Below, in pieces: positions 40,401 to 41,841 of a stretch of 64,000 nt of DNA; positions within the stretch are counted from its first letter, which is position 1; every line of letters starts with the position of its first letter. This DNA comes from Paraspadella gotoi (Eukaryota > Animalia > Chaetognatha), in assembly GCA_051294375.1 (NCBI GenBank), contig CM119265.1:11533818-11597817 (forward strand). Reading direction: 5' to 3'. The notes below the pieces were generated by a model. It made no database searches and had not been told where the DNA came from. It worked only from the letters and a program-made list of their open reading frames with translations. Position numbers and translations under genes: made by a program.

Positions 40401-41841
40401 GAATAAGAACTTGCGGATGCGGTTGCGTAGGGTCGACCTTGTTGAGGGAGGCGATGGTGAAGGCCGCTGTTTTACCGGTTCCGCTTTGACTCTGAAAGGA
40501 GAACGAAGATTCACGTTTAGCGGTGTTGGAACAAAGACAACGAAAAAAAACAAGATCGGTTAATGTAAGGAACAAACTTGTCGTCGCCCCTTAATGCAAA
40601 CTTATGGTAGCCTAGGCTGTCTGTAAAATTAGTTCCTTAAATTAAGGCTTAATTCTCCCACGAGCGAGATTAAGAATTAAAATTGTAACGGACCTGCGCA
40701 ATAAGATTCTGTTTCGGATGTCCGAGAAGAAGAGGAAGGGCCGTCTCTTGAATCTTTGACGGTTGATTGTACCCCAAAGCGTAAATTCCTGTCGTTTTCA
40801 TGGAAACAATGCAGACCATATATTATCCTTAGAGTGAAAACGGGAATTTTCTTTCTCCCTTTCTTTCTCCGCACCCTTTAATAAATCCGGTCGAAGATTC
40901 AACTGATCAAAGGTTGAACAGGAGTAAAGCGGGGAGTTGGGATCCTTCCGTTGCACTTCCACGCTGTCCGTCACGAACTGATTCAAGACCGTATTCAAGT
41001 GTTTGTTCATCAACGAAATCTCTTCAGCCTTCGGGTGGTCCGTATCTTCCGTTCCCGCCACGACGTCCACAGCTGCAGCAGCCACTTGAGTCTTTTCCGG
41101 AGAAATGGCGGCATCGCGCTGCCGTGTGAAAAAATCGAGCGTGGAATCGGCGGCGGTGGCGAAAACGTCCAACTCTCCTCCGGGGCATTCTCCAGATCGG
41201 TTGGCCGCCAAATGAGCAAGACTCTCGTCCCTGAGCGTCTGTAGCTCGTGACTGGAGCAGGCCGAGAGTCTTTTGATCATGGCGAGTGAGGCTTGGGCCT
41301 TGGCCAATTTCTTGCTCGGCCTGGTCGACGTCTCCACGAGGGAGCCGCACGATACCTTGACGCTGACACCGAGGTGGGGCCTAGAGACGTCGAAATGGTA
41401 CTCCGGATATGGCAGGTGGTGGAGACGAATAAAGTCTAACAGCGCCTGGACGGGATGGTGCCCGCCCAAGTCCACAGAAGACGAAGATGAAGAGAGGGAA
41501 CGTGGAGTGACGTTGGAGAGCGGAGCCGGGGCTGGAGAAGGAACTGAGTGATCCACGGAAGGTACAAGGGCTTGCGTCAACGTTCGGGACAGTTTTTTAA
41601 AAGGGTCGGCGATGGGCGATGTCCTACTTCCAAAGAAGGGCGTCGACGTGGGAGCTGAAAAATCAGCAGAACCGAAGACGTTGGACGTTGGCGCTGGATT
41701 CGACAAGCTATACTGTGCGGCTGTCGCGGTTGTCGCGGCGGCTGCAGGGTTGGCCTTGATGGAAGAAATATCAGAAGAACAAAGTCCTCTCGCTTCCTGG
41801 AGATCGACGCTCGTCGCCCAATCGTCGTCGTCCAAAGCCAT
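28488..41841 (-). CDS. DDX19: DEAD-box mRNA export helicase DDX19/DBP5 (DDX19/DDX25 family), ~699 aa, with an extended N-terminus
   Basis: Exons 41841-40875, 40788-40694, 40491-40372, 33081-32902, 31878-31749, 29513-29309, 29042-28944, 28872-28717 and 28635-28488 total 2100 nt in an open frame. Motifs: [11 protein letters not shown]-motif [66 protein letters not shown]. Confidence 0.95.
29584..31745 (+). mobile_element. HINE-like element (ATCTCGCCAGA subfamily) filling DDX19 intron 5
   Basis: 5' AAAATCTTAAAAGTATAGCG-ATCTCGCCAGA (29605-29615). 3' TCTGGCAAGAT-AAAAA (31729-31745), ending 3 nt from the exon. Confidence 0.6.
29682..30461. mobile_element. hAT-like MITE with TAGAG...CTCTA termini and TAACCG/CGGTTA subterminal repeats; related half copy ends at ~45784
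   Basis: TAGAGTTCCGATAACCGTTAACAGTTAACGG is matched by CCGTTAACTGTTAACGGTTATCGGAACTCTA. No clean TSD seen. Confidence 0.7.
31906..32855. mobile_element. MITE with long (~200 bp) TIRs and TA target duplication (Tc1/mariner-like); right half also at ~1695-2100
   Basis: TA|CACGGTGACAATTTTACAAGC ... GCTTGTAAAATTGTCACCATG|TA. The arms are reverse-complementary over ~200 bp. Confidence 0.8.
34560..37402 (+). mobile_element. Decayed Ty3/Gypsy LTR retrotransposon internal region (gag-PR-RT-RH-INT, truncated) inside DDX19 intron 3
   Basis: Gag Cys motif [18 protein letters not shown]; protease [39 protein letters not shown] and VYLDDILV (~36141); RNase [17 protein letters not shown]; integrase [17 protein letters not shown] cut off at ~37402. 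Many frameshifts; no flanking LTRs recognised. Confidence 0.9.
37965..38270 (-). mobile_element. Putative short retroposon (SINE or LINE 3' fragment) with a (TAAGG)n-type tail
   Basis: GC-rich ~300-bp island in an AT-rich intron, bounded on one side by TACCTTAACCTTACCTTACC, a short tandem tail on the minus strand. Confidence 0.35.
39715..39911 (-). mobile_element. Diverged partial copy of the 255-bp LTR
   Basis: Same terminal GGCGGTGTGAATATACCGCCACA and internal hairpins as 23317-23571, with substitutions. Confidence 0.75.

Follow-up and report, generated by a model that had tools for sequence, protein, structure and literature searches.

The 64-kb window analyzed here (64,000 nucleotides of the arrow worm Paraspadella gotoi; contig CM119265.1 of assembly GCA_051294375.1, positions 11,533,818 to 11,597,817; coordinates below are those of the window) carries a gene of the DDX19/Dbp5 mRNA-export helicase type, whose N-terminal tail holds a predicted domain of the double-stranded-RNA-binding type (dsRBD). 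A gene model, for which a homologue was run in tblastn and splice sites were scanned, places this gene on the minus strand (41841-28488), with nine exons encoding 699 amino acids and no internal stop. Seven of its introns are of the GT-AG type and one is a predicted GC-AG intron; exons 4-9 were placed from the gene model, one contig loose end and length arithmetic. At intron 4, the best model requires a GC donor at 32901, which has a weak consensus. The initial annotation, made from the sequence alone, had described an insertion of ~230 residues in one open exon, between the conserved DDX19 N-terminal motif and the SLMNKHL segment, and had read residues 129-193 (41457-41263) as a dsRBD. The open reading frame bears out the insertion: it runs for 360 codons (41880-40798, minus strand) with an ATG at 41841, and the SLIP1/CTIF/PAIP1-binding motif (SBM, W8-E16) and the SLMNKHL segment share exon 1 (41841-40875) with the inserted domain. 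Counting from this ATG returns exactly the mapping given for residues 129-193. Residues 246-324 align with residues 30-107 of human DDX19B (E 3e-8). The GC content of the insert is 58%, compared with 46-61% for the exons and 24-46% for the introns, and a stop-free frame over the 230-codon insert was seen in only 20 of 20,000 shuffles.

Twelve sequencing runs, none of them on record as RNA, were compared with the window by shared words. Eight DNA-type runs hold 96-100% of the window's words (seven of these may be the source itself), and run X9, from another study, holds 76%. One X9 contig of 5246 nt spans 42425-40874 unbroken and with zero letter changes (examined over 40340-42440). This contig omits the 86-nt and 202-nt GT-AG introns that DNA run X8 retains. 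Its loose end coincides with the start of exon 4, and the 1057 nt that remain there agree with the 918 nt predicted for exons 4-9 together with ~140 nt of 3′ untranslated region. At its other end it includes the upstream gene, with ~2.4 kb lying 5′ of 42425. In the dominant assembled form, all of the insert is part of an exon, and exon 1 is joined intact to the helicase exons, as the initial annotation had proposed to confirm. Exon 1 contains two weak donor-like and two acceptor-like sites, none of which the contig uses. Splicing-out of the domain was rejected for the assembled form, since the X9 contig keeps all of exon 1, although rare isoforms may exist. A later start at M278 was also rejected: it lies inside the auto-inhibitory helix and would drop the SBM, which all relatives retain at their own start. 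The outcomes that would have undone the earlier proposal (no fold, a spliced-out segment, a downstream start) were not found, and the relatives keep both the start and the domain. Separately, run X10, labelled as another organism, yielded a 170-nt spliced piece (window 40378-40749, depth 2.2) that is identical to the gene and includes the exon 2-3 junction. It is likely carry-over or co-sampled material; run X11 gave no matching piece, and neither of these two runs bears on exon 1.

The sequence signal for a dsRBD is borderline. On a trimmed piece, the Pfam dsrm family (PF00035) matched over model positions 1-66 of 66 (E 8.3e-5) at 23.5 bits, against a cut-off of 23. The proposed Pfam check thus straddles the cut-off: on the whole exon 1 the match fell under it (20 bits, E 0.001; 16.2 bits on another longer piece), and full-length P0002 and P0003, the two homologues described below, gave no match at E<=1. 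The fold assignment rests on an alignment-based model and on fold searches. A single-sequence fold was poor (predicted local distance difference test, pLDDT, 50.5) and was replaced by an AlphaFold2 model with a 7-row alignment, which reached a pLDDT of 87.8 and a predicted template modelling score of 0.75. Its elements follow the order H-E-E-E-H-H (helix 130-141; strands 147-151, 159-165 and 168-174; helices 177-194 and 197-213). In VIA-align (48,161 chains), the top row was R2D2 dsRBD1 (Z 9.8, root-mean-square deviation 1.4, 64 aligned residues), followed by DCL4 dsRBD2 and TRBP2 (Z 9.7), and nearly all of the best 50 rows are chains containing a dsRBD. Foldseek also ranked dsRBD rows at the top (probability 1.0), with weak E-values (best 1.6e-3). 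DHX29 chains appear among the matches of both searches. The rows of both searches scarcely probe the last helix (alpha3, 197-213). Segment 129-194 is therefore predicted to be a dsRBD fold followed by an extra helix, and structure prediction comes out on the side of the initial reading.

At the level of sequence, the best matches of the domain were Staufen2, TRBP and PACT, all weak (E 0.017-1.1). The ESM Atlas placed the homologue P0004 with dsrm clusters at 0.82-0.85, short of its 0.9 bar. A profile made from four exon-1 pieces found nothing under E 0.19 among PDB sequences, so that the donor gene of the domain cannot be named.

The domain is shared by five related sequences, two of which are full-length helicases. 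A search among long proteins, in which 7,992 candidates were scored, gave two matches. These are P0002 (742 aa) and P0003 (687 aa), each a complete DDX19 that carries the domain; the contigs that encode them (2738 and 2187 nt) have sizes that fit transcripts. A phmmer search over 1.84 billion representatives returned 63 matches, among which P0004 (an entire first exon), P0006 and P0007 carry the domain. The domains of P0006 and P0007 end after beta3, likely at an intron. As judged from protein ends only, intron positions appear to differ among the relatives' genomic fragments: P0006 and P0007 show a break inside the dsRBD, following beta3, and P0005 shows none at the exon 1-2 boundary. A profile of four of these domains matched seven of 185 proteins (P0001-4, P0006, P0007 and P0067, the last almost a copy of P0003); 32 DDX19-like loci from a metagenome scan gave no match. 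Among 122 full-length DDX19-like proteins, mostly the best 120 of 3,004 matches, the domain was present in three (P0002, P0003 and P0067) and was found in none of the other 119. The long DDX19 entries P0068-P0071 were rejected as carriers, as they gave no match to the domain profile; P0068 consists of two helicase units with no dsrm. These results support the lineage-specific fusion proposed initially, and the survey of orthologues finds the domain kept in related sequences with the same start.

Conservation along the tail is uneven. Over six pairs, identity is 51-62% in the domain, 17-37% in the linkers and 69-85% in the auto-inhibitory segment. Because domain identity lies far above linker identity, the sequence comparison indicates that the domain is under selection. 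The layout is also conserved: the SBM, a linker of 105-167 aa, the dsRBD with alpha3, a linker of 46-70 aa, the auto-inhibitory helix and RecA1-RecA2. The distance to the PNSPLYS motif has a median of 89 aa in 112 proteins, versus 288-342 aa in P0002 and P0003.

The rest of the protein is that of a DDX19. Motifs Q, I, Ia, Ib, II (DEAD), III (SAT), V and VI are intact, and the nearest named and solved relatives are DDX19, Dbp5 and Dbp80 (P0003 versus DDX19B, E 1.8e-167). All six equivalents of the Gle1 contacts G329, T332, K385, D470, D472 and E475 are kept, with A334 changed to G and L471 to M, and the equivalents of S60 and K64 in the auto-inhibitory helix are kept as well. The Nup214 contacts of DDX19, which we take to be D223, I258, R259 and R262, correspond to D, V, R and R in the window protein and to D, I, R and R in P0002 and P0003. 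Since the catalytic, Gle1-contact and presumed Nup214-contact residues are kept, the enzyme looks, as far as residues tell, like a fully pore-competent DDX19. The SBM is present in all six domain-bearing sequences; in DDX19, this N-terminal motif docks CTIF, SLIP1 and PAIP1 (bioRxiv 10.64898/2026.07.31.742013). The human N-terminal tail is described as unstructured and mildly inhibitory (PMC5998080).

Phylogenetic analysis of the helicase core places the domain-bearing proteins beside a domain-free group. The nearest domain-free proteins are five sequences of 492-515 aa (P0072-P0076). In a tree of 24 rows picked from 48, with DDX25 not among the rows, a single clade (100/100) unites the three full-length proteins with the dsRBD and is sister to these five (100/99), a grouping supported at 97 in a quick mixture tree of all 48 rows; the long stems may attract each other in the core tree. 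The rows from arthropods, molluscs, vertebrates, echinoderms-hemichordates and cnidarians lie outside this pair of clades, and none of the 32 metagenome loci falls in either clade. Two short core motifs, of three compared, are exclusive to these eight of the 122 full-length proteins. In the core, members of the dsRBD clade are 76-79% identical to one another and those of the short clade 86-96%, whereas identity across the two clades is 63-66%. A placement of the window protein inside the short clade was rejected (approximately unbiased test, p 8e-60, the group having been named once the tree was known). Duplication, followed by gain of the domain and faster change in one copy, is probably the best explanation of the tree and the identities. 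The initial annotation had raised the possibility of a second, canonical DDX19, and the domain-free sister clade answers this at the level of the lineage rather than of this genome. Chaetognaths have duplicated 3,379 gene families (PMC12460157).

The gene lies in a chain of minus-strand genes that extends from 48740 to 2100 of the window (Table 1). It opens with an orphan gene of more than 600 codons (48.7k-47256 plus 42425-42021, across a 4.8-kb intron), which gave no Pfam match. After 179 nt follows the DDX19-dsRBD gene and, after ~380 nt, an M13 neprilysin-type peptidase (28.1k-24755). The chain continues, ~630 nt further, with a rhomboid protease (24.1k-22531) and, after another ~370 nt, a HEATR1/UTP10-like gene (from 22163). 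In P. gotoi, same-strand genes less than 250 bp apart have been counted as operons (PMC12460157), and the 179-nt gap falls within this distance. Nearly half of the genes of this species are trans-spliced (PMC12460157, PMC2481426), and an acceptor-like AG ~20 nt ahead of the DDX19 ATG may be a trans-splice site. No leader-like loose end was found in the X9 contig (a single contig, and contigs drop variants), and three published leader motifs are absent from the 64-kb window. The chain is operon-like, with only the first gap bridged by an RNA contig; one contig over two genes does not prove a single transcript.

Several repeats lie in and around these genes. A broken Ty3/gypsy-type long terminal repeat retroelement (34559-37540, plus strand) sits antisense in the 7.3-kb intron 3 of the DDX19 gene; its gag-like, protease, reverse transcriptase and integrase-like segments are shifted in frame. 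Upstream of the long exon of the orphan gene lies a tandem array of ~900 bp with a ~22-bp unit (~49040-49940). A dispersed repeat, several hundred bases long, has at least two near-full copies, which lie on opposite strands (~42960-43900 and 51750-52470), one of them split by a short insert, with a diverged piece at ~45150-45340. Within the span of the HEATR1-like gene, ~10000-12800 shows a strong C/A skew (GC skew -0.54) with long low-complexity frames, possibly degraded repeat or low-quality sequence.

Table 1. Features of the DDX19-dsRBD gene and of the adjoining upstream gene
Feature	Position	Strand	Basis
Last exon of upstream gene, no known family, joined in frame to exon ending 47256	42021..42425	-	X9 loose end matches 47256 onward
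AT-rich gap, 179 nt, 29% GC, between upstream stop and DDX19 ATG	41842..42020	-	Bridged by X9 contig
Exon 1 (SBM, linker, dsRBD, linker, auto-inhibitory helix, mobile loop), encoding residues 1-322 and one further base	40875..41841	-	Single open reading frame; X9 contig record 4 unbroken; GT donor
SBM, W8-E16	41794..41820	-	Matches residues 6-14 of vertebrate DDX19 in pattern and position
Predicted dsRBD, alpha-beta-beta-beta-alpha, residues 129-194; D136, H156, K177-K178-K181	41260..41457	-	Pfam dsrm, AlphaFold2 model, Foldseek, VIA-align
Extra C-terminal helix alpha3, residues 197-213	41203..41253	-	Predicted, block pLDDT 86-93; S..E[LV]..[LV]R pattern in 4/4 complete domains
Auto-inhibitory helix, metazoan DDX19 type; S276 and K280 equal human S60 and K64	40993..41034	-	Alignment with human DDX19B
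Exon 2 (Q motif)	40694..40788	-	Both junctions present in X9
Exon 3 (motifs I, Ia)	40372..40491	-	Junction present in X9 and X10; Pfam DEAD
Exon 4 (motif Ib), GC donor predicted	32902..33081	-	Start is X9 loose end; 3′ end predicted only
Exon 5 (DEAD, SAT)	31749..31878	-	tblastn and gene model; predicted
Exon 6	29309..29513	-	tblastn and gene model; predicted
Exon 7	28944..29042	-	tblastn and gene model; predicted
Exon 8 (motifs V, VI)	28717..28872	-	tblastn and gene model; predicted
Exon 9 (acidic C-terminal helix, stop)	28488..28635	-	tblastn and gene model; predicted

The reading that we regard as the best, and to which we give about an even chance, is that of a DDX19 paralogue that is competent at the pore and is directed to structured RNA. 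Here, a conserved domain of dsRBD fold in the tail of what is likely a duplicated arrow-worm copy would bind structured or double-stranded RNA (dsRNA) beside the helicase core at the nuclear pore; taken as a whole, this proposal could fall either way. The SBM, the two linkers, the predicted dsRBD with alpha3, the auto-inhibitory helix and RecA1-RecA2 all lie in one spliced reading frame. The KKxAK patch, aided by a basic residue three positions ahead, would grip an RNA helix by its shape. The flexible tether would then raise the local concentration of the ribonucleoprotein, RNA would displace the auto-inhibitory helix, and the core, activated by Gle1 at the pore, would strip export factors. 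The short sister copy could serve bulk mRNA export, leaving structured cargo to the dsRBD copy. Candidate cargoes are mRNA-protein particles (mRNPs) with duplexes or hairpins and structured non-coding RNAs (tRNA, spliced-leader or small nuclear RNAs, small-RNA precursors). Precedents exist for several of these steps. In the fly helicase MLE, dsRBD2 places dsRNA at the entry to the helicase (PMC11498004); Dbp5 of yeast has a part in tRNA export (PMC6711706) and is reported to handle pre-ribosomes; dsRNA or duplex mRNPs are preferentially exported, with more Mex67 (PMC11236707); and fly Blanks exports dsRNA, in the form of siRNA (small interfering RNA) precursors, via a dsRBD (PMC7144943).

RNA binding by the domain is, from its residues, a fairly good bet. 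Canonical dsRBDs contact RNA through a Glu in helix 1, a GPxH motif in loop 2 and KKxAK (PMC4748816, PMC11309768). The KKxAK at the start of helix 2 is intact in all four complete domains, and in the same four the Gly three positions ahead of it is replaced by Arg or Lys. A series of observations weighs against the proposed role. Of the three canonical RNA-binding regions, just one matches in full. In helix 1, Asp replaces Glu in five of six distinct sequences (Glu in P0004), and loop 2 reads SRPH, SAPH, SSPH or SRPQ, with no Gly and not GPxH, its Pro-His being present in five of six. The span from the beta1 aromatic residue to KK is 28 residues, versus 31 in TRBP dsRBD2, and such a short loop 2 is a mark of protein-binding dsRBDs, for instance Loqs dsRBD3 (PMC4748816). 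The beta2 Phe is replaced by Val or Ile, both glycines ahead of KK are replaced, and the domain of P0003 has a net charge of zero (7 K+R, 7 D+E). In VIA-align, protein-binding dsRBDs (Z 9.5-9.6) rank level with RNA-binding ones. On the transcript side, RNA support comes from a single assembled contig of a single study whose RNA label is guessed, and contigs drop rare isoforms; short and long forms were not seen together in one genome or run, in a comparison made without a whole genome. By its residues, the domain is thus neither a textbook type-A dsRBD nor a lysine-less protein-only one.

The same features fit a protein-binding or transport module, an alternative that we consider unlikely but that fares best among the rivals. 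The dsRBD fold would then dimerize, bind a partner through a Dicer- or Staufen-type contact, or act as a karyopherin signal that relocates this DDX19, possibly via the extra helix. The short loop 2, the missing GPxH and the lost Phe are as in protein-binding dsRBDs, and TRBP dsRBD3, Staufen dsRBD5 and Loqs dsRBD3 are among the top VIA-align rows. Furthermore, the conserved non-canonical residues HPVQ/PYP/SCGS, together with alpha3, lie off the canonical RNA face. Published work describes dsRBDs as import or export signals (PMC3753931, PMC2173575) and a transport signal in the N-terminus of yeast Dbp5 (PMC6711706). Protein-only dsRBDs, however, typically lose the lysines (AADAQ in Loqs dsRBD3, PMC4748816), whereas KKxAK is kept in four of four complete domains at ~55% overall identity, along with the conserved basic residue. 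A use of the domain for protein binding only is accordingly judged improbable on these residues.

It is also rather doubtful that there was no duplication, with the long form being the sole DDX19 in one subgroup, other taxa having the short clade, and the domain being an accessory of the only export helicase, an arrangement compatible with either binding mode. In its favour, both forms were seen together in no genome or run. Against it, the 63-66% identity between the clades is about a phylum-level distance, yet they share exclusive motifs, each clade comprises at least five distinct sequences, and paralogues have been retained on a large scale in chaetognaths (PMC12460157).

A poorer candidate still is RNA binding for a non-export job of DDX19, such as translation termination on the ribosome, the export of pre-ribosomes or a germline role akin to that of DDX25, the vertebrate DDX19 paralogue. 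The DHX29 chains in both fold searches fit such a job, as the dsRBD-like domain of DHX29 works on the 40S subunit. The faster divergence of the dsRBD clade core (76-79%, versus 86-96% in the short clade) is what would be expected of a freed paralogue, and roles of this kind have been published for Dbp5 and DDX19. Against this, the Gle1 contacts, the SBM and the presumed Nup214 contacts are all kept, which fits pore work, yet Gle1 also acts in translation. Finally, an artefact (mis-assembly, a retained intron, or an in-frame pseudogene or transposon remnant), to which a Pfam score that only reaches the cut-off and misses the full-length homologues might point, has a negligible chance, being already refuted by five relatives with a selectively conserved domain and by the spliced contig; eight DNA runs with nearly all of the window's words (seven of them possibly the source) and a 699-codon stop-free model also speak against it.

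The preferred reading, a pore DDX19 steered to structured RNA, can be set against known systems. Human DDX19A/B, yeast Dbp5 and fly Dbp80 (PDB 3fmp, 6b4i, 3ews) have the same core, SBM, auto-inhibitory helix and Gle1-contact residues, but a tail of ~50 unstructured residues, compared with ~270 here, including a folded dsRBD-type domain (as predicted). Vertebrate DDX25/GRTH is also a specialized DDX19 paralogue, from an independent duplication, and we know of no dsRBD in it. In DHX9/fly MLE, DHX29, DHX30 and Dicer, a dsRBD is likewise tethered N-terminal to a superfamily 2 helicase, and in MLE dsRBD2 both delivers dsRNA and regulates the core (PMC11498004). Whereas these enzymes have DEAH/RHA or Dicer-type cores with extra domains, the protein described here is a pore ATPase of the DEAD-box family that has one dsRBD, an independent gain. 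The DHX9/MLE hallmarks (DEAH core, HA2 and OB, tandem dsRBDs) are absent: the protein has a DEAD motif, only the DEAD and Helicase_C families, and one dsRBD. The dsRBDs of TRBP, PACT, Loqs, R2D2 and Staufen share the fold (Z up to 9.8) and KKxAK, but the domain described here has a short loop 2 without GPxH and an extra C-terminal helix, and is 10-33% identical to them. Drosophila Blanks, which contains dsRBDs and carries dsRNA from the nucleus into the cytoplasm (PMC7144943), works much as is proposed here, although it is a stand-alone shuttle of two dsRBDs without a helicase, and its likeness to the window domain is that of a shared fold.

No description of a DDX19/Dbp5-dsRBD fusion and no literature on chaetognath DDX19 were found, most subscription journals being outside the coverage. 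DDX19 is likewise without mention in the main text and three supplementary PDFs of the chaetognath genome paper, as far as that source was covered (PMC12460157; the large supplementary spreadsheet lies outside the coverage). The combination of DDX19 and dsRBD appears to be new, and both parts, as well as dsRBD-helicase pairs in the DEAH and Dicer families, are already known; these known pairs limit the surprise.

DDX19/Dbp5 gives nuclear export its direction, and its core, which shows no sequence preference in RNA binding, depends on partners. To our knowledge, a cargo-selective Dbp5 is known in no studied organism. A natural Dbp5 with a built-in, conserved reader of RNA shape, as predicted here ahead of the auto-inhibitory helix, would offer a test of whether tethering alone lets Dbp5 prefer certain cargo and lifts its auto-inhibition. 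Other gains of this kind may have gone unnoticed elsewhere, because routine annotation misses the domain in full-length proteins. A bolder and quite speculative extension is that arrow worms split the last export step between two DDX19s, one of which reads RNA shape via its dsRBD and provides a dedicated pore route for dsRNA or highly structured RNA (duplex mRNPs, spliced-leader RNA, silencing precursors). If true, the finding points to a route of structured-RNA export in a phylum in which about half of the genes are trans-spliced.

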